Below, in pieces: positions 5,648 to 62,568 of a stretch of 64,000 nucleotides of DNA. The DNA is from Nitrospirota bacterium (lineage in GTDB: Bacteria; Nitrospirota; UBA9217): assembly GCA_963751455.1 (NCBI GenBank), contig CAVVUN010000001.1, positions 256,001 to 320,000 of the forward strand, in the 5' to 3' direction. Every line of letters begins with the position of its first letter. Within the stretch, counting starts at the first letter, position 1. Made by a program: the position numbers and the translations under genes. Under the pieces are notes generated by a model that was not told the origin of the DNA, did not search any database, and saw nothing but the letters and a program-made list of their open reading frames with translations.

Positions 5648-5744
5648 ATGTGCACCTCTCTGAAAATCATTTTACTTGCTTTTCTTTGTACAGGGATGAG
5701 GTTTTCATGCGCGAAAGAACGTTAAGGAGAGGGTGAATCTCCAC

Positions 5745-5958
5745 CTAGTGTAGTGTCTCACAAACGACTGGTGTTATCATAGCGCGGCAGTAGGCCGCAG
5801 CCAAACTTGTAGGGCAAGGCTTTAGCCTTGCTGAAAGCGCCGGAACAGCAGCAACCCTAAAGGGTCGCCCTACAAATTCATCAGCAAATATTTATGCGAA
5901 GATAAGTATTCGATGAGAAATCATCATAACACCGTCCATTTAAGAGACACTACACTAG
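5745..5958 (+). mobile_element. MITE family A copy 1 (CTAG-bounded, carries REP doublet)
   Basis: TIRs CTAGTGTAGTGTCTC...GAGACACTACACTAG; near-identical copies at 40858 and 62357 in the opposite orientation. Confidence 0.9.
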
Positions 5959-20496: not shown

Positions 20497-20626
20497 ACAG
20501 AAATCACGAATTTAAAATAACAAGTTCGGTTCCAAAGTTGATGCAGTCAAAATCCACCGCCGAGACACGGAGACACAGAGATAAAAACGAGTCTCTTACG
20601 GTTCTCACAAGCTTTCCCATAACCCG

Positions 20627-20801
20627 CTGCATCCCGTGAACAGCGTTCGCGCTTTACATGACCGGAATGCGAGCCGGTAAACCACAAATCGTGCATGCGC
20701 GTGCGTAGCGCAGCGAAGCTCAGCGCTATGGATAGCTAAGTCGATTGGAAGAACATAAGATAATCTGGCATGTTTGCGCGGCGCTGTGAACGGCGGTGCA
20801 G
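20627..20801. ncRNA. Candidate structured non-coding element, copy 1
   Basis: Homologous to 56204-56368; long closing stem and internal hairpins; strand unknown. Confidence 0.45.
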
Positions 20802-20871
20802 AAAAAAAACAAGGATCTTGTACTTCCCTGAAGTGTTTGTCCGTTGTTCATTGGAGATGATCAAATAAAAG

Positions 20872-22656: not shown

Positions 22657-22861
22657 CGATCCCAGAATTCCGGGGATAACAAGACGGAAAATCGGCCCCA
22701 ATTAACTGTACGGGACGACGGACGTCCGCTCACCTCGGTTCGCTAGGACGTTGGACGCTAAAGACTTTTCATCCTTCGTCCTTCGTCCCTCATCTCCGGC
22801 TTTTTACGCGCCTTCTCACGCCCATCGCTTCATACGCGATCCGCATATTATAAGGAGACCT

Positions 22862-25800
22862 ATGCAGCTCAAAACCCTCGAAATGACCGGCTTCAAGTCC
22901 TTCTCTGACAAGACGATCGTCGCATTTCAACCCGGGATAACCGCAGTGGTAGGACCGAACGGATGCGGCAAGAGCAATATCTCGGACGCCATCCGCTGGG
23001 TGTTGGGCGAGCAGAGCGCAAAGCATCTGCGCGGCGAGAAGATGGAAGACGTGATTTTCAACGGGAGTGAAAACCGCAAGCCGCTCGGTCTGGCCGAGGT
23101 GGTTCTGAAGCTCTCGAACGCGGCCGGCGGCCTGCCGTCCGATTTCGGTCAATACAGCGAGATCGAAATCACCCGCCGCCTGTATCGCTCGGGCGAAAGC
23201 GAATATTTCATCAACAAGATCCCCTGCCGTCTGAAGGATATCCGCGACCTCATGATGGACGCGGGCGTAGGCGGCAAACTGCACGCGATCATCGAGCAGT
23301 CCAGGGTCGACCAGATTCTTTCTTCAAAGCCGCAGGACCGCCGTTTTCTCTTCGAGGAAGTTGCGGGCGTCATGAAATACAAGGCGCGCCGCCAGGAAGC
23401 GCTTTCCAAACTCGAGGCGACCCAGCAGAACCAGCTGCGGATAAACGACATCATCATCGAGGTAAAACGGCAGGTCAACTCCCTGGACCGGCAGGCAAAA
23501 AAAGCGGAGCGCTATCAGAAGCTGCGGGCCGAAATGAAGGATTCGGAGTTCCGGCTGGCCTCGGTTGAATATTCCAACCTGGGCATCGAATGGACCTCTT
23601 CGTCCGAAGAGTTCAGGAAGCTCGAAGACGAAGTTACCGGGCTCCACGCGGCGCTTGGCAGGATCGAGTCGGGGATCGAGGAAACCAGGGCGGCGGCCTT
23701 GTCTTCGGAGCGCGAGCTCGCGACGCTCCAGAACAAAATCCACGAAACCGAATCAGCGCTCAGCCGGGCCGAACACCGGGTGGAGATGTCCAAAAGCCAG
23801 ATCACATCCCTGACCGAACAGAGCGGCCGCGACAGCGCCGACATAGAATATCTCAAACAGGAAATGGTCCGAACGACGGATCAGAAAAAGCAGCACGAGG
23901 AGGAAGCGCGGTCTCTCGGCGAATCGATCGAGGAGAGAAACAGGGTACTCGTTCAAAAGGTGGAGGATATCGAGTCCGTTGCCCGTGCGCTCCAGGAAAA
24001 GGAACTGTCTCTTGAAGAGACCAGGAACGGGATCCTGAGCGCCATGAATCAATCGGCTGCTGAAAAGACCAGGGTATCGAACCTCAGGGCCAGGGTCTCT
24101 CAGATCGATGAGCAGGATGAGCGCGCATTGAAGGAAAAACTGGAACTGGAGCGGAAACTCGGGGAGCTTAAGGTCCTGCTCGCCGATAAAGAGCGCGAGC
24201 TTGAAGACATCGCGCGCCGCCGCGTCTCTGCCGAGGATGAACGGACACAGGTCTCGGCCAGGCTGGAACAGGCGACAGCAAACAGAAAAGGGCTCGAAAC
24301 AGGGCTCAATGAAAGCAGGAACAGACTTGCGGCACAGAGTTCGCGGCTCCGCTCCCTTCTCGAACTGGAACAGAGCCTCGAAGGTTATCAGAAAGGCGTG
24401 CGTACCGTGATGTCGGCCCGCAAGGAAGGCGCAGCCGAACAAAACCTCGGCACGATTCACGGAATCGTTGCCGATATGATCGAGACCGAACCCAGATACG
24501 AGGTGGCGATAGAGGCAGTGCTCGGAGACCGGCTCCAGTACGTTGTGGTCGATTCGCAGCACGATTCTCTCAAGGCCATCGATTATTTGAAGACTAGGAG
24601 CGGCGGTCGGAGCACCTTTGTTCCGAAAACGCCGCGGGAGGTCCGGTCAGAGCCGTTCATAAAGAACGGCCATGCAGGCGTGATCGGTCCGGCGCTCGGC
24701 GTTGTCAGATGCAAGGAGAACTACAGCACCGTCGCCCAATACCTGCTCGGCGACGTGGTGGTTGTCGATACCATGGACACCGCCCTTTATTTATGGAACA
24801 AGAACGGTTTTAACAAAACGGTTGTAACTCTTTCCGGCGAAATCGTGGATCCGTGGGGTGCGGTCACAGGGCGGAGCCGCAGACGCGGGCGGAGCCGGCA
24901 TGCTGACGAAACGCCGGGAGATCAAGGACCTTGAGCATGAAGTGTCCGTGATCACCGCTCAGGCGGCGAAGCTCGAAAGCGAACTTCGGACGGTCGAAAC
25001 GGCGATTGCTTCGGACACCAAAACCGAGGCGGAGCTGTCGCAGATAGTGCACCGCCTGGAGATCGAACACGTCAACGGGGAAAAAGATTGCACCGCGGTC
25101 AGCGAGGAGATCGGCCGCTCGACAGAGCGTTGCACCGTGTTGGAAGCCGAAGCCCGGGAACGGGAAACCATGCGGCATGCGCTGAACGCCGATATCCAAA
25201 AATCGGAGGTGGTTTTGAGGGACCTGGAGACGGGCCATTCGAATGCGCAGGCAAGCGCGGAAGCCCTTCAGGCTGAGCTTTCCCGTACGAAACAAACGCT
25301 TGAATCAGCGCGCGCCGAGATCATGGAACTCCGCATGCAGCTCGCAGGCCTGCAGGAAAAACAGGCCGCGTCAGCCAGGAGCATCGACGCTTTACTCAGG
25401 ACAGAGGCGGACCTCATGGACCGTATCGGGAAGCGCGAGGCGGGAATCGCCGGCGTTGCCTCGCGCCTCGCGGAGCTGCATGCGTCCATACAGGAAGCTG
25501 AAACCGAGATCAAAGGCCACATCACGACGCTTGAAGCAGACCGCACGGTCCTTGTTGCGCTGCAGGAAGCCCATTCCGTAAAAGCAGCTTCGCTCCAGGC
25601 GGCCGACGAACAGGCACGGCAGACGCGGCACGATATCGATGCCGGCCAGAAGCAGCTCTCCGCAAACGAAGTGAAGCGCACCGAGCTCAGGATGAAGATC
25701 GAGCATTTGAAGGACCGGATCTGGAGCGCATATCACAGCGACCTGGAAACCGTTGTTCAGGAGCTGGGAGTATTCGAGCTCAACCTCGAGGAATCGCGCC

Positions 25801-26444
25801 TCCGGCTGGACGAACTGCGCCAGAAGATCGACCAGCTCGGCCCGATCAACGTCGATGCGCTCCAGGAATACAACGAGCTGAGAGAGCGGTACGACCTGTT
25901 GAGCGCCCAGCAGAACGACATCAACGAATCCATCAACAACCTTAAAGCCACGATCGCAAAGCTTGACGGTGAAACCAAAGAGCTTTTCAGCGACGCCTTC
26001 AAGGCGATACAGGAAAAGTTCACCGAGGTCTTCTCTCTCCTGTTCGAGGGCGGCAGAGCCGAGCTTGTTCTGCTGGACGAGTCGAATATGCTGGAATCGG
26101 GGATCGAGATCATCGCGCAGCCGCGCGGCAAGAAGTTTCAGGCAATCTCGCTCCTGTCCGGCGGCGAAAGGGCGCTCACTGCCATCGCCCTGCTCTTCGC
26201 GGCATTCCTGGTCAAGCCGAGTCCGTTCTGCATGCTCGACGAGGTCGATGCGCCCCTCGATGAAGCCAATGTGACCCGCTTTACACGTCTTCTCCGGGAG
26301 ATGAGCAGCCGGTCGCAATTCATTACGATTACCCATAATAAACGGACAATGGAGATGGCCGACGCGCTCTATGGCATCACCATGGAAGAGCCCGGATGCT
26401 CCCGTGTGGTATCCGTCCAGCTGCGCGAAGCGGCCCTGGTATAA
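22862..26444 (+). CDS. smc: Chromosome segregation protein SMC (frameshift near 24870, likely sequencing error)
   Basis: GFKSF, GPNGCGKSN, hinge, LSGGERAL, LDEVDAPLD; removing one G in ACAGGGCGG joins the two ORFs. Confidence 0.93.
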
Positions 26445-40675: not shown

Positions 40676-40857
40676 ACGCAGTTCTCTTCGCGCAGCCACT
40701 ACCGCAAGTTGTTTGTCCCGCAAGATGTTTTGGTCGGTCATGTCCTTCAAGTCACCAGGTTCAAAAATAATTGACTTGTTTTTTAAAAAAAAGTAAATTT
40801 CATTCTAATGAATTACAAACCTTCATAATACTCAGGCCGGAATAATTCTCTTTCCGA

Positions 40858-41070
40858 CTAGTGTAGTGTCTCTTAAATGGACGGTGTTATGATGATTTCA
40901 TCGAAAAACTTATCTTCGCATAAATATTTGCTGATGAATTTGTAGGGCGACCCTTTAGGGTTGCTGCTGTTCCGGCGCTTTCAGCAAGGCTAAAGCCTTG
41001 CCCTACAAGGTTGGCTGCGGCCTACTGCTGCGCTATGATAACACCAGTCGTTTGTGAGACACTACACTAG
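40858..41070 (-). mobile_element. MITE family A copy 2
   Basis: Reverse complement of 5745-5958, same TIRs. Confidence 0.9.
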
Positions 41071-41223
41071 CTGGAAATAGCAAAAAAAGAAGGTTGATTC
41101 TGATCCGTTGAGTCTTACATCGCTGTTTCGTGCCTCATCGGCAATGGCGATATCAGTGTAACGTCACGTTGCGATTGGGCTGCTCTTTTTTTTCAATCAT
41201 TGGTTTAACACAGGAGATCGCGT

Positions 41224-45009: not shown

Positions 45010-45083
45010 CCCTCTGTGTCAATATGACTGAGACACCTCCCCTATGGTAAATTAGAGTAGCGGGCGGGGGAGGAAATAACCTT

Positions 45084-45587
45084 ATGATAGCAACAAAGAT
45101 CAAAGCAACCCAGGGAAACGAAGGGGCCCGTAGGGCGACTGAGGTTCCCTGGGACGAGCCCCAGCAAGAAGTCAATTCTCATCAAGGTATGGCTTCGGTC
45201 CTGCCGGACCCCGAGGTTCCGGCCAAAGCCGTGCGGCGACGTTTTACAGCTGAATACAAGCTTCGAGTCCTTACGCTTGCCGATGCCTGCGATGAGCCGG
45301 GGTGCCTTGGTACGCTCCTGCGCCGAGAAGGGCTCTATGCATCGAATCTCAAAACCTGGCAAGGTCAGCGCGACCGCGGCGTACTATCCGGCCTCGCGCC
45401 CAAGAAGCGAGGGCGTAAGGAATCAGTCCGCCATCCTCTCCATGTAGAGAACGAAAAGCTCCGCAAAGAGAATGAACGGCTTACCAATCGTCTCAGGCAG
45501 GCCGAAATTATCATCGACGTTCAAAAAAAAATATCACAGATTCTGGGGATCCCGCCTGCGACCCCGGTGAAAGGAGAGAGCGAATAA
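45084..45587 (+). CDS. IS3 transposase OrfA
   Basis: RRRFTAEYK HTH, leucine zipper, A9 slippery site at QKKI. Confidence 0.9.
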   Translation: MIATKIKATQGNEGARRATEVPWDEPQQEVNSHQGMASVLPDPEVPAKAVRRRFTAEYKLRVLTLADACDEPGCLGTLLRREGLYASNLKTWQGQRDRGVLSGLAPKKRGRKESVRHPLHVENEKLRKENERLTNRLRQAEIIIDVQKKISQILGIPPATPVKGESE

Positions 45588-46603
45588 TGGAAGCCGCTCT
45601 TACTCTTTCCTGTGATATCGGGATCAAATCAGCATGTGCATCGCTCGATGTGCCTCGTTCAGGGTTCTACCGGACGCAGGCACGAAAAAATGCGCCTCTC
45701 CTGGAGCGCAGAAAACGTCCGAGACCTCCTCGTGCACTCTCTTCAGACGAACGGCAAGGAGTACTCGATATTCTCCATGCCGACCGTTTCACCGACAAGG
45801 CACCCCAAGAGGTCTATGCAACCCTTCTGGATGAAGGGGAATATCACTGCTCTATAAGCACCATGTACCGCATCCTCGACGAAAACCAGGAGGTCAAGGA
45901 GCGCAGGAACCAGCTCACCCATCCCGTGTATCAGAAGCCGGAACTTTTGGCCACGGCACCGAACCAAGTCTGGTCCTGGGACATTACGAAGCTTTTAGGC
46001 CCGGCAAAATGGACCTATTTTTACCTCTACGTGATCATGGACATCTTCAGCCGCTACGTCGTCGGCTGGATGATCGCCCCTGCTGAATCGGCTTCATTGG
46101 CGGAAAGGCTCATCAAGGAAACCTGCGCAAAGCAGAATATCGAAAAAGGACAGCTCACGATTCACGCGGACCGCGGCTCTTCCATGAGGTCCAAGCCGGT
46201 TGCCTTGCTCATGGCTGATCTGGGGGTCACGAAGACTCACAGCAGGCCGTATACGAGCGATGATAATCCGTTTTCCGAGTCACAATTCAAGACGCTCAAG
46301 TACCGGCCGGATTTCCCCGATCGGTTCGGCTGCATCGAGGACAGCCGAGGTTTCTGCCAAGTCTTTTTCCCTTGGTACAATACCGAGCATCACCACTCCG
46401 GCATCGGACTGCTTACGCCGGAATCCGTCCATTACGGAGTTGCCGAAGACGTGCAAAAAGCCAGAAGCGTGGTGCTTCTTACAGCGTACGAGGCGCATCC
46501 TGAAAGGTTCGTGAGGAAGATCCCGGTTCCTCCTTCATTACCGGACGCGGTGTGGATTAATAAGCCGAAACCGATCCCTCTGAGCGAGGAAAAAGTACAC
46601 TAA
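45587..46603 (+). CDS. IS3 transposase OrfB (DDE)
   Basis: WSWDIT, DIFSRYVVGW, HADRGS, DNPFSESQF. Confidence 0.93.
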   Translation: MEAALTLSCDIGIKSACASLDVPRSGFYRTQARKNAPLLERRKRPRPPRALSSDERQGVLDILHADRFTDKAPQEVYATLLDEGEYHCSISTMYRILDENQEVKERRNQLTHPVYQKPELLATAPNQVWSWDITKLLGPAKWTYFYLYVIMDIFSRYVVGWMIAPAESASLAERLIKETCAKQNIEKGQLTIHADRGSSMRSKPVALLMADLGVTKTHSRPYTSDDNPFSESQFKTLKYRPDFPDRFGCIEDSRGFCQVFFPWYNTEHHHSGIGLLTPESVHYGVAEDVQKARSVVLLTAYEAHPERFVRKIPVPPSLPDAVWINKPKPIPLSEEKVH

Positions 46604-46758
46604 ATTCGGACGCGGGGTGTCTCAAAGTCATTGACAAATTCCGAGGATCGTTCCTCGCCTTTTTTCCCTACCTTGATTCTTATATTTCCCAAGCCTGCCT
46701 TTTTGTAAAAACAATTATAATCAATTAGAAGGTGAGGCTTGATCTAAATGAGCGACGG

Positions 46759-50264: not shown

Positions 50265-51898
50265 CGGAATTTGTCAATGACTTTGAGACACCCCGCGTCC
50301 GAATTTAGTGTACTTTTTCCTCGCTCAGAGGGATCGGTTTCGGCCTATTAATCCACACCGCGTCCGGTAATGAAGGAGGAACCGGGATCTTCCTCACGAA
50401 CCTTTCAGGATGCGCCTCGTACGCTGTAAGAAGCACCACGCTTCTGGCTTTTTGCACGTCTTCGGCAACTCCGTAATGGACGGATTCCGGCGTAAGCAGT
50501 CCGATGCCGGAGTGGTGATGCTCGGTATTGTACCAAGGGAAAAAGACTTGGCAGAAACCTCGGCTGTCCTCGATGCAGCCGAACCGATCGGGGAAATCCG
50601 GCCGGTACTTGAGCGTCTTGAATTGTGACTCGGAAAACGGATTATCATCGCTCGTATACGGCCTGCTGTGAGTCTTCGTGACCCCCAGATCAGCCATGAG
50701 CAAGGCAACCGGCTTGGACCTCATGGAAGAGCCGCGGTCCGCGTGAATCGTGAGCTGTCCTTTTTCGATATTCTGCTTTGCGCAGGTTTCCTTGATGAGC
50801 CTTTCCGCCAATGAAGCCGATTCAGCAGGGGCGATCATCCAGCCGACGACGTAGCGGCTGAAGATGTCCATGATCACGTAGAGGTAAAAATAGGTCCATT
50901 TTGCCGGGCCTAAAAGCTTCGTAATGTCCCAGGACCAGACTTGGTTCGGTGCCGTGGCCAAAAGTTCCGGCTTCTGATACACGGGATGGGTGAGCTGGTT
51001 CCTGCGCTCCTTGACCTCCTGGTTTTCGTCGAGGATGCGGTACATGGTGCTTATAGAGCAGTGATATTCCCCTTCATCCAGAAGGGTTGCATAGACCTCT
51101 TGGGGTGCCTTGTCGGTGAAACGGTCGGCATGGAGAATATCGAGTACTCCTTGCCGTTCGTCTGAAGAGAGTGCACGAGGAGGTCTCGGACGTTTTCTGC
51201 GCTCCAGGAGAGGCGCATTTTTTCGTGCCTGCGTCCGGTAGAACCCTGAACGAGGCACATCGAGCGATGCACATGCTGATTTGATCCCGATATCACAGGA
51301 AAGAGTAAGAGCGGCTTCCATTATTCGCTCTCTCCTTTCACCGGGGTCGCAGGCGGGATCCCCAGAATCTGTGATATTTTTTTTTGAACGTCGATGATAA
51401 TTTCGGCCTGCCTGAGACGATTGGTAAGCCGTTCATTCTCTTTGCGGAGCTTTTCGTTCTCTACATGGAGAGGATGGCGGACTGATTCCTTACGCCCTCG
51501 CTTCTTGGGCGCGAGGCCGGATAGTACGCCGCGGTCGCGCTGACCTTGCCAGGTTTTGAGATTCGATGCATAGAGCCCTTCTCGGCGCAGGAGCGTACCA
51601 AGGCACCCCGGCTCATCGCAGGCATCGGCAAGCGTAAGGACTCGAAGCTTGTATTCAGCTGTAAAACGTCGCCGCACGGCTTTGGCCGGAACCTCGGGGT
51701 CCGGCAGGACCGAAGCCATACCTTGATGAGAATTGACTTCTTGCTGGGGCTCGTCCCAGGGAACCTCAGTCGCCCTACGGGCTCCTTCGTTTCCCTGGGT
51801 TGCTTTGATCTTTGTTGCTATCATAAGGTTATTTCCTCCCCCGCCCGCTACTCTAATTTACCATAGGGGAGGTGTCTCAGTCATATTGACACAGAGGG
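50265..51898 (-). mobile_element. IS3-family element copy 2 (orfA 51321-51824, orfB 50305-51321)
   Basis: Near-identical inverted copy of 45010-46643; flanked by a TTA direct repeat. Confidence 0.93.
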
Positions 51899-52288: not shown

Positions 52289-54974
52289 TTATTTCGCCAG
52301 CCGCCTGAGGATCTCCTCAAGCTTCTTTATCTGCTCGCCGTACCCTGCCCAGTTGCCCTCTCGTTGCAGCTGCAGCGCCCGTTCATAGACGCTCAGGGCC
52401 TGACGCGAGAGTTCTGCCGGGGACACACCCTTCTCTTCCACAATTGTGCGCGTTGCAGGAGCCTGAGTCGGCCGTTTGCCGCCGAACATGCGGAAGAGCG
52501 CCAGTTCCAGGTTGTCCTCCATCACGACTTCGTTCTCGTATGCCACGATGACCCTGCGCAGCTCCGGTAGGCTCCCCTTGTCCGCTGATGCAAGATACAA
52601 GGGCTGTACATAGAGAAGAGAGCGCTCGATCGGGATGATAAGCATGCTTCCCCTGATCACCTGCGATCCCCGCTGGCCCCAGAGCGTCAGCTGCTGCGAT
52701 ATGGCGGAATCCTGGTTGATGCGCGCGTCGATCTGCTTCGGTCCGAAGATCAGCCGGTCCCGGGGGAAGGTATACGCGATGATCTTGCCGTAGTTCGGCT
52801 CGTCGCACCGGGCCGTAATCCAGGCCGCCAGGTTGTCGCGTTTTGCGGGCGTAAACGGCATCAGCAGGATGTACTCTTCCTTCTTTTCGCCAGGCAGCTT
52901 CATGACCGTGTAGGAAGGCTCCATGGGCTTGTTTTCATGGAGCGGCAGCTCCCAGAGGTTCTCCCTGTTGTAGAACACCTGCGGGTCCGTCATGTGATAC
53001 GAGGCAAAGAGCGAGGCCTGGATCTGGAGGAACCGGTGCGGATACCGGACATGACTGCGGAGATCCATGGGCATTTCGGAAAGCGGCTTGAACAGCGTGG
53101 GAAAGATCCGCTGGTAGGTCCGGATAAGCACATCCGCCGGGTCATAGACATAAAAATCAACATTGCCGTCGTAGGCATCCACAACTGCCTTGACGGAGTT
53201 GCGGATGTAATTTATCCGTCCGGAAGGCCGGGAATACGGAAGACGGTCGGACGAAGTGAACGCGTCGATGATCCAGGCAAGCCGCCCGTTTTCCCGGACA
53301 ACCATGTACGGGTCCTGCTCGAAGAGAAGGAACGGCGCGACTGCCCTCACCCGCTCGGCAATGGTGCGATAATACAATATTTTGCTTTGGGGCTGAATAT
53401 CGGAAGACAGCAGGATCTTTTCGCTCTTGAACACAGCCGCAAAGAAAAGCCTCCTTGCGAGCGATCCGACGCTCACTCCGCCCTTGCCGTCATACGTGGT
53501 ATAGATGTTTTTATCGGTGGTCGGATAGCTGAACTCGGGCACCCGGGTCTTGACGATTACGTACTCATTCGACAGTTCCCCGTAGTATATCTCCGGACGG
53601 CTGATCTTCACCTCAGGCGCCTGGCTTATCGGCGGGATGTCCTTTACGATGAATTCCGGCAGGCCTTCCCTGCTGATCCTGCTGACCGGGCCCATGGTCA
53701 GGCCGTTGCCGTGCGTGAAGATGAGCCGCTCGTTGATCCAGTTCCTGCTCGGCAGATCGTTGTACGAAAGCTCGCGCGGCGAGAGCATTACCTGCATGTA
53801 TTTTTTGTTGACCGTATAGCGGTCGTTGTCCACGTCAAAGAATTTGTAGTACGTGCGGATCTGCTGCAGCTGGCTGTACGTCCTGAGCAGCGGCGCATGG
53901 TCCCAGAGGCGAACGTTATCGGTCGTTGCCGCGTTGTCTCTCGATGTCCCTGGACGAAAGCGTGTAATCCACGTCAAACGGTTTGACCTCGATCTTGTCC
54001 AGATCGAAGCCCATGCGGGTAAAGCGGATATTATGGGTAATGAACGGCGTTTCCAGCGCCAGCTCATTCGGCGCAACTTTGAACTGCTGGAGGCCCGAAG
54101 GATAGAGCATCACGCCCACGACGTAGAGGACCCCAACGAGCACCGGCGGCGCCAGTGCCAGGAGCCAGGAGCCCCTCCAGGTCCCGATGACAAGCATAAC
54201 AGCCGCAATTGCGGAGGCAATTGTCAGGATGCGGTATATCGGGAGCCGCGCATACACGTCGGTATACCCTGCGCCGTAGATCACCCCGCTGTCCGAAAAG
54301 AGCAGCCGGAATGTATCGAGGTAGAAACCGACGGCCATATTGAGCAGGATCAAGCCGATCAGTACAGCCAGGTGGCGGATAACCGGCCTCTTTATGGAAA
54401 AGCCGCGCTCGCTCATCGCGATGCCGCCGCGCAGGAAATAGACAAGTGCCGTCGTCGCTGCGGTGAGGAACAGCATGAACCCGATGAAACCGATCAGCGC
54501 CTCTATAAACGAAAGATCGAACAGATAGAACCCGATGTCAGATCCGAGCACAGGGTCCGCCATACCCATGCGCTCTCCGTGCTGAAACAGCAGGAAATCC
54601 TGCCATTGATGAGAGGCCCACTGCCCCGCCATAAGGCCGAATAGGGCGGCAGCTGCCGGCATAAGCAGTTTCAGCAGCCGGTCAGCGGAACCGGTCGTGA
54701 ACGGTCCGGGCGCTCCCTGGATAAAGAACAAATCGCGCTGCGGAAATGCAGCTCTTCGCGCTATCTCAGCATTCACAACAACAAAAACAAACAGCAGAAG
54801 CCCGAATGCTGCGCCGAGGCCTATTTTGACGAAAAGGGTTTTCGTAAATACCGGTATGTATCCTGTCTCTTGAAAAAATAACCAGTCAGCTGCAAGGTCG
54901 AGGAGCGACCACAGGAACGGCAGAGCAAACAGGAGAGCAACTGCGATGAGGAGAAGTATTCTCGGTCTTTTCAT
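52289..54974 (-). CDS. UPF0182 family membrane protein, frameshift near 53937
   Basis: DPVLGSDIGFYLF, GAGYTDV, NVRLWD, YTHG-like FTHG, NYIRNSVKA; one extra base splits the ORF. Confidence 0.88.
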
Positions 54975-55092
54975 GTTATTTCCTTTCATTTGCGGCGCAT
55001 GCCGAGGCTGAACCGCACATTATGCGTCCTCTTTTTTTACTGTATCACAAATTTGATCAAAAGCCAAAAAATATTGATTCTTTGTGCTTCCG

Positions 55093-56111: not shown

Positions 56112-56203
56112 GATAGAGCTTCAGGTTAAGGACTTGATTTATAAGTGTTGATGACTTTCCTATAAGTGCAAATTTTGTCTTTATTCGGCTTTTTCAGAGA
56201 CCC

Positions 56204-56368
56204 CTGCATCCCGTGAGCAGCGACCGCGCTTTACATGACCAGCATCAACTTGGTCAAATCACAAATCGTGCATGCGCGTGCGAAGCTCAGCGCTATGGGA
56301 GGCTGTATTGACAATTATAACTGAAGATATTCTGGCATGTTTGCGCGGCGCTGTGAACGGCGGTGCAG
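56204..56368. ncRNA. Candidate structured non-coding element, copy 2
   Basis: Homologous to 20627-20801. Confidence 0.45.
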
Positions 56369-56585
56369 AAAAAATAAAAGGATCTCGAACTTCCTGGCAT
56401 GACTGTTCAGGCTGCTGTTTTTTTGAATGCCTGCTAATTCTTTCTAAATCTTTGCAATTTAGGGTTATTCGCGAAATTGCTGATAGAGGAAACAATTGCA
56501 ACAATCGCCCGAATATGCTACAAAATACGTACATGAAGGGCTAACTGGAGCTCTATTGAAAACACGAGCACAATGTTTATTCACA

Positions 56586-62352: not shown

Positions 62353-62356
62353 GCGG

Positions 62357-62568
62357 CTAGTGTAGTGTCTCTTAAATGGACGGTGTTATGATGATTTCAT
62401 CGAAAACTTATCTTCGCATAAATATTTGCTGATGAATTTGTAGGGCGACCCTTTAGGGTTGCTGCTGTTCCGGCGCTTTCAGCAAGGCTAAAGCCTTGCC
62501 CTACAAGTTTGGCTGCGGCCTACTGCTGCGCTATGATAACACCAGTCGTTTGTGAGACACTACACTAG
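62357..62568 (-). mobile_element. MITE family A copy 3
   Basis: Nearly identical to 40858-41070. Confidence 0.9.

Follow-up and report, generated by a model that had tools for sequence, protein, structure and literature searches.

Two copies of a hairpin repeat

The window, i.e. the whole 64,000-nt stretch of DNA analysed here, contains two copies of a structured intergenic repeat, termed unit A (Table 1). An earlier note on this DNA had reported both, and both are present, with 78.4% identity over 176 alignment columns. As also stated there, the flanking genes of the two sites are unrelated, and both copies are followed by an A-run and then GGATC. Within the 5' frame of copy 1, the part from 20611 on is shared with copy 2. 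The unit is larger than the size of about 170 nt given for the element, namely about 210 nt with its fixed flanks. The note had missed about 30 further genomic copies, the partner units and the arrays, and had thus described one half of a two-part alternating array. The impression that it matches no known riboswitch or non-coding RNA stands. Rfam gives no match at gathering score for either copy and only a tRNA in the window as a whole; around copy 1, a search at E<=10 adds just three sub-threshold chance matches. Seven loci with partner units have no Rfam match either, be it ribozyme or intron.

Table 1. Positions of unit A and its parts in the window
Feature	Position	Strand	Description
Unit A, copy 1	20627..20801	+	175 nt; 34-nt stem arms, two fixed-length spacers, central core; inside ABC ATPase-permease operon
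5' frame, copy 1	20608..20626	+	degenerate TTTGCTTTTCCAGARGCCC consensus; half of tail-to-tail linker
5' GA of tandem G.A/A.G mismatch, copy 1	20638..20639	+	partner GA 20788-20789; bulged C 20794
Central core, copy 1	20697..20726	+	GCGC stem, asymmetric loop, GC-GNA-GC tip lengthened by 10-nt (two-pentamer) duplication
3' frame, copy 1	20802..20827	+	A-run, GGATC, GAACTTCC-like; half of head-to-head linker
Unit A, copy 2	56204..56368	+	165 nt; between Na/Ca exchanger gene (-) and PMT_2 gene (+)
5' frame, copy 2	56185..56203	+	
Central core, copy 2	56274..56293	+	tip is a GC-GAA-GC mini-hairpin
3' frame and decayed palindromic head-to-head linker, copy 2	56369..56424	+	T-run at end; intact linkers elsewhere lead to partner B

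The window has further features besides this repeat. A CTAG-bounded element of about 215 bp with terminal inverted repeats (TIRs) of about 39 nt occurs at 5742-5958, 40857-41071 and 62356-62568; its three copies are 97-99% identical and represent a recent classical MITE, separate from unit A. Two identical, inverted copies of an IS with an rve integrase (45010-46643 and 50265-51898) enclose 3.6 kb in a composite-transposon-like arrangement, containing three ORFs without Pfam match (150, 136 and 263 aa) and an IS200-type tnpA. The SMC (22751-26444) and UPF0182 (52289-54989) genes are each split over two frames, by a frameshift or an assembly error.

Anatomy and covariation of unit A

Collection of homologues yielded 192 distinct copies, in which unit A is 164-191 nt long with clusters at 165-168, 175-176 and 183-186 nt. 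Conservation of sequence continues past the stem for about 19 nt on the 5' and 26 nt on the 3' side of the collected copies. Positions -1 to -19 of the 5' frame are mostly 53-92% conserved; the stem foot reads GCCC, CCCC or CGCC at the 5' side and AAAA at the 3' side. The A-run is not a poly(A) tail, since its length is near-constant and consensus sequence continues beyond it. A sigma-54 promoter in the 5' frame was rejected, with the conserved GG missing at the expected place.

The interrupted closing stem described in the earlier note is recovered. Folded as RNA, the two window copies reach z = -5.3 and -4.0, with none of 200 shuffles as good; as DNA, under a nearest-neighbour model that gives GNA loops no bonus, the values are z = -1.8 and -2.0, with 8 of 200 shuffles as good. 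The outer stem covaries. Across 40 aligned copies with core 1, its 23 pairs are 92.7% paired and eight of them have changed on both sides; whole-structure measures in these copies are reached by 0 of 500 shuffles, and slid controls are 15-50% paired. These covariation figures are not probabilities, because related copies are not independent. RNAalifold retains the outer stem and pairs the core differently. A further covarying pair, 35:132, extends the stem (A-T in 22, C-G in 35, A.G in 14 and C.T in 0 of 73 copies).

Compensatory change, as claimed from the two copies, has to be relocated: it is found in the outer stem and the central core across homologues, not in the inner hairpin ACCGG/CCGGT cited for it. 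The latter is 58.8% paired in the 40 aligned copies and does not beat the half-swap control; at least 5 bp form in 19 of 73 copies against a control mean of 16.5, and 111 of 500 half-swap controls are as high. The CAC/GTG helix, described as kept, is 70.8% paired with its third pair unpaired in 33 of the 40 aligned copies. GCGC...GCGC is indeed kept (99.4%). The 3' interior, said to diverge freely, keeps a purine-rich consensus and has a fixed length, 69 of 73 core-1 copies measuring 46-49 nt there; on the 5' side, the distance from CATG to the tip is 43-44 nt in 68/73.

Tandem GA/GA mismatches occur in 40/40 aligned copies and the bulged base is a C in 190/192, both counts being partly imposed by the patterns used for collection; the core forms part of no search pattern for unit A. 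A kink-turn was considered and rejected, as the GA pairs are, by eye, symmetric and without an adjacent 3-nt bulge. Wobbles comprise 96 G.T versus 22 A.C in 143 de-replicated copies, with the bulge register picked per copy for best pairing. This excess of G.T identifies the + strand as the folded strand. Neither window copy has a promoter-like site on that strand or a terminator call.

Exchangeable cores and the mini-hairpin tip

Three exchangeable cores follow one grammar, consisting of a stem, an asymmetric loop, two C/G pairs and then G...A. Four kinds of tip occur: GNA triloops, in which the middle base is free, GNNA tetraloops, not all of them of the GNRA type, GNA/GNA extensions and tandem-GA stems. 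Copy 1 of the window carries the GNA/GNA extension, derived from its 10-nt duplication, and core 3 (72/192 copies) has the tandem-GA stem in place of the triloop. The pairs closing the tip change from GC...GC to CC...GG. Loops seen are GAA, GCA, GTA and GGA, plus the non-GNRA loops GATA, GTTA and GTCA; on its 3' side, the tip is followed by four bases of mostly GNRA-like sequence (GTAA, GAAA, GGAA, GTGA). Of 120 core-1/2 copies, 116 carry the motif GCG(N)1-2AGC or CCG(N)1-2AGG on the folded strand and 2 carry it on the other.

DNA mini-hairpins have the sequence GCGNAGC or GCGNNAGC according to the sections of the review by Kimoto and Hirao cited here; their RNA counterpart is much less stable, and they occur at priming and promoter sites of ssDNA (PMC13037366). 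That the tip of unit A follows this rule is the main reason to favour ssDNA over RNA.

Alternating arrays and partner units

Unit A is joined to partner units B, C or D through palindromic linkers, of which the frames are the two halves. It alternates in inverse orientation with these homologous partners, in head-to-head and tail-to-tail arrangement; the arrays have a period of roughly 425-480 bp and contain as many as four A units. On the strand opposite to A, the frame of A recurs in B and D, and its three cores in B. A model built from A alone matches B on the opposite strand with 23-60 bits; the reverse strand of A itself scores <=21 bits. Neighbouring cores lie on opposite strands in 77/78 cases or, as the orientation of the C pattern was set after its cores had been inspected, in 48/49 cases (B, D or core-3) counted without that pattern. 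The head-to-head linker forms a hairpin flanked by A- and T-runs, reduced in some arrays to just an A-run and a T-run. Orthologous arrays of close relatives differ in copy number, phase and end points, which are ragged and lack a constant junction. At L067:8500-8700 the end of an array appears to truncate the 3' end of the neighbouring gene; at the orthologous loci L070 and L071 that gene extends further.

A nested second class of mini-element is formed by modules of 40-110 nt with GCCTG...AGGC-type ends and a GNA hairpin of their own (G000 C3:220279, C15:172660, C15:1174544 and many more). They sit in the stems of unit A in either orientation, in its linker and in several unrelated families of palindromic repeats.

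Distribution

The repeat is uncatalogued, gene-less, intergenic and, in the genomes searched, restricted to one family of Nitrospirota. No description of it was found in the literature searched, mainly the main text of open-access papers. The genome of the window has about 30 copies (33 nhmmer hits, which include halves of interrupted copies, and 29 covariance-model matches). The covariance model matches 26 of 63 other genomes of the same family and none of 123 outside it; a degenerate 3'-arm pattern matches 23/63 and, among genomes from other families of the phylum, 0/337. Near-complete family members such as G016, G086 and G111 have no covariance-model match. A metagenome scan adds at least 121 loci, and the genome records matched are assigned to Nitrospirota, Nitrospiria or Nitrospiraceae in 24 of 25 cases, with one assigned to Betaproteobacteria. 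Plasmids and phages match in short chance pieces only, and viral contigs have no match for the A-arm, C-type core and D core patterns.

A 20-nt core resembling that of partner D and a hairpin, TAGTATTAC or CAGTATTAC, lie about 80 nt apart at L244:2501, L246:1851 and L248:197, contigs which we take to be two near-identical inovirus-like and one 2-kb CRESS-like sequence. Three of 12 viral matches show this arrangement; the remaining ones are intergenic palindromes, long and C-like in their 3' part.

Insertion sites and genomic context

Relatives of the genome have empty sites. The ATPase gene still adjoins the permease gene in 22 of 29 loci, with the element in 0/29, so that the copy 1 site is empty at 22/22 orthologous junctions; the gap measures -1 to 216 nt there (713 nt in one case, with another ORF) and 375 nt here. 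The gap holds other, unrelated palindromic repeats in relatives L211, L214 and L224, which marks it as a recurrent landing site. No full unit is found at 21/21 exchanger loci orthologous to the copy 2 site. Two congeners differ at a site with 90-94% identical flanks, which is filled in one and empty in the other, and at one orthologous site the units lie in opposite orientations.

Copies cluster, with 16 of 38 loci less than 10 kb from another (4.6 expected; 1 of 5000 simulations). They are also in excess at convergent sites, as REPs are (8/27 and 33/77, compared with 209 of 1720 gaps or 12%), and have a downstream gene on the same strand in 12/27 and 23/77 cases; these orientation counts rest on crude gene calls. 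There is neither a consistent orientation nor a gene partner among the copies, and their neighbours are unrelated. The IS200/IS605 elements have a described preference for the lagging strand; the copies here, counted by GC skew, show no replication-strand bias (12 vs 15).

A riboswitch or attenuator, i.e. a cis-regulatory RNA serving the neighbouring genes, is suggested by an intergenic, structured and conserved sequence, the more so as copy 1 lies between two co-oriented genes. With a same-strand downstream gene at just these minorities of copies, unrelated neighbours and absence from 43 orthologous loci, such a function is extremely unlikely; inconsistent orientation and neighbours, together with the empty orthologous sites, largely refute the riboswitch.

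Junctions are ragged, with end points inside stems and linkers. Even in the closest pairs of filled and empty sites they are ragged or decayed, and no clean insertion junction was recovered among the sites compared. Inspection of flanks by eye showed no target duplication. This bears on a second alternative, a MITE acting as double-stranded DNA, in which the 34-bp arms would be imperfect TIRs for a DDE transposase and the spacers would place protein sites on one face of the helix. The inverted arms, the tight spacer lengths and unit lengths near 165, 175 and 185 nt, about one helical turn per step, would all suit it. Conservation, however, does not stop at the arms but includes the frames, which form no inverted repeat with one another, and the mismatches are strand-asymmetric, for which recognition of duplex TIRs has no need; with the ragged junctions and the lack of a visible target duplication, we consider a MITE very unlikely.

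Search for a partner enzyme

Matches to Y1 transposases number 33 in this genome, and none of the 29 inspected is flanked by the units; about 0.8 kb separates a Y1 fragment from a 5'-end fragment (C12:256177). A Y2 search returned no match, its controls being silent as well. In the same genome, tyrosine recombinase genes provide no partner for the units, RT and IS110 genes are not adjacent to them, and the nearest of six GIY-YIG matches is about 11 kb away. Pfam finds no transposase, no RT and a single integron integrase in 150 non-redundant neighbours elsewhere, and no partner enzyme in 73 + 150 neighbouring proteins. Clusters of 312 and 528 neighbouring ORFs contain just orthologues, sensor kinases and spurious ORFs through the repeat. 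No run listed as RNA was found among sequencing runs that contain the sequence; by comparison with contigs only, three runs contain 6-8% of words, and one of these is guessed to be RNA.

Many Y1-HTH transposase genes of 270-320 aa are scattered over the genome (G000 C1:184811-186036, C1:546104, C15:1291667 and others). They are TIRtron-like and bounded by short GGGTCA...TGACCC inverted repeats, and one is tandemly duplicated.

An integron integrase gene (TIGR02249 match above cut-off) has one copy of the unit at its 3' end. This would suit a third alternative, an unusual attC-like recombination site for this integrase, as would a hairpin folded on one strand with a bulged base. The unit is present, however, at 1 of 30 integrase loci, and the presence of the gene does not track that of the element: G016, G005, G004 and G012 have the integrase without units, and G021, G133, G054 and G001 have units where the integrase was not found. 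The integrase was rejected as partner on this ground. As the arrays also have no genes between units and alternate in orientation, an attC-like nature is highly implausible. In 34/64 genomes of the family there are matches to integron integrases that measure about 500 aa and carry a long N-terminal extension (L105:916-2466, L257).

DNA or RNA

The earlier note had left a choice between a new structured RNA and a mobile motif folding as ssDNA. Multiple copies, patchy occurrence, orthologous sites without the element, arrays that change, a fold specific to one strand and a tip of the DNA type support the second part of this proposal. The structured RNA is the weaker reading, and unlikely. It would be a selfish or dispersed small-RNA family spread through an RNA intermediate, with A and its partner transcribed from opposite strands towards the A-run/T-run linker as a two-way terminator. 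The hairpin of the head-to-head linker, bounded by such runs, agrees with this, but in some arrays only the runs exist, the folded strand of the window copies lacks promoter and terminator signals, and the A-run is of a kind that does not suit a tail. Nearest-neighbour folding is more significant as RNA than as DNA, which counts against ssDNA; tolerance of G.T over A.C and tandem GA agree just as well with RNA, and the four-base strand beside the tip is mostly GNRA-like. The tip itself points the other way, being either a non-GNRA tetraloop or a triloop whose middle base is free. Moreover, no ribozyme or intron matches A or partner loci, an RT gene is beside no copy examined, and the family is missing from many near-complete relatives.

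The best explanation, with a probability of roughly 0.6, is a gene-less, multi-copy mobile repeat forming BIME-like arrays of long hairpins, which is likely read as folded ssDNA, and likely by an enzyme acting in trans. This value joins two parts: that the repeat is mobile is very probable, and that ssDNA rather than RNA is the folded form is fairly probable. Counting against the ssDNA mobile repeat are the lack of a cognate enzyme in our searches, the even distribution over replication strands, a core 3 without triloop and the failure to recover a clean insertion junction.

Where a region becomes transiently single-stranded, each strand of an array would expose its own folded unit, and the stem irregularities together with the mini-hairpin core may serve as the enzyme's binding site. 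A candidate nuclease or transposase that reads hairpins could, in trans, cut, re-join and locally amplify the units. Strands would be cleaved and transferred within linkers or stems, at sites that are loosely defined, and together with rolling-circle-like extension this would give rise to permuted tandem arrays and solo fragments, by analogy with the model proposed for TnpA-REP on BIMEs (PMC3333891).

A more specific scenario, which we judge quite unlikely, takes the pair of A and partner as a minimal non-autonomous rolling-circle DNA of 430-480 nt, driven by a hitherto undescribed ssDNA enzyme and with a folded initiation signal on each strand; the arrays would be integrated concatemers, the stem the site of the enzyme and the mini-hairpin core a priming signal. 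Contexts of Bacteroidetes, Firmicutes and Proteobacteria type also contain a related core, and another occurrence is next to the nick-site hairpin in small ssDNA replicons. If the scenario is true, the repeat would belong, as a single branch, to a class of structured ssDNA elements that is widespread but has escaped recognition.

Comparison with known systems

Complex intergenic folds are usually read as RNA. The ERIC/IRU and REPIN repeats and other long stem-loop repeats of bacteria, likewise gene-less and multi-copy, are described as single long stems. Mobile or repeat candidates such as MRSC-65-2, in a set of 250, resemble the present family in long stems, covariation, inconsistent orientation and a choice between RNA and DNA that is left open in the cited part of that work (PMC11109978). 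Compared by description only, the family differs from all of these single stems in having several homologous unit types, which change strand from one to the next and exchange three cores. Structured ssDNA more complex than a hairpin would be rare and hard to tell from RNA, as Weinberg et al. state in the passage cited (PMC5737381). The repeat offers about 190 natural variants with a long stem, linkers of fixed length and a swappable core, conserved on one strand and alternating between strands, which make the question of DNA versus RNA directly testable. In practice it is a lineage-specific repeat to be masked or annotated, not to be called a riboswitch.

Tip variants GCGNAGC, GCGTTAGC, CCGAAGG and GCGGAGC match the mini-hairpins given for ssDNA priming and promoter sites of G4, St-1/alpha3, RSF1010 ssiA and N4 in the review sections cited (PMC13037366). 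Only this 7-8-nt motif is in common with those sites, and for the repeat it is known from sequence alone.

In all likelihood the repeat family is not a TIR MITE or an attC site, nor is it an Ssn repeat or an Rfam family. The NTS/dRS3 repeats are, like the units here, oriented hairpins that occur in clusters; read as ssDNA by dedicated GIY-YIG nucleases (Ssn; PMC11893778), they set a precedent for a partner enzyme other than HUH. The NTS/SRM motifs described there measure 20-50 nt and flank the ssn gene (PMC11893778), whereas no unit of this genome has a GIY-YIG gene beside it.

The closest likeness is with REP/BIME-2 and the atypical BIMEs of E. coli and their TnpA-REP (RAYT). As described in the portions cited, these share with the present arrays extragenic location, inversely paired unit types, head-to-head and tail-to-tail linkers, tandem and chimeric arrays with copy numbers varying by locus and strain, irregular stems, enrichment downstream of genes and local clustering (PMC3333891, PMC3733652). 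The repeat works like an oversized REP/BIME, yet it is not a REP, being too long, without the GTAG or CGTC tetranucleotide that a REP has at its stem foot, and without a cognate transposase found. According to the same portions, REPs of E. coli measure 20-40 nt (PMC3333891, PMC3733652), compared with 165-185 nt here and an exchangeable core held on spacers of fixed length. A cognate RAYT gene is flanked by its REP; neither the Y1 matches inspected nor the 150 neighbours elsewhere include such a pair. If the reading as a mobile ssDNA repeat is correct, the enzyme would be a reader of hairpin units that are four to five times as large as a REP, other than a cis-linked RAYT.
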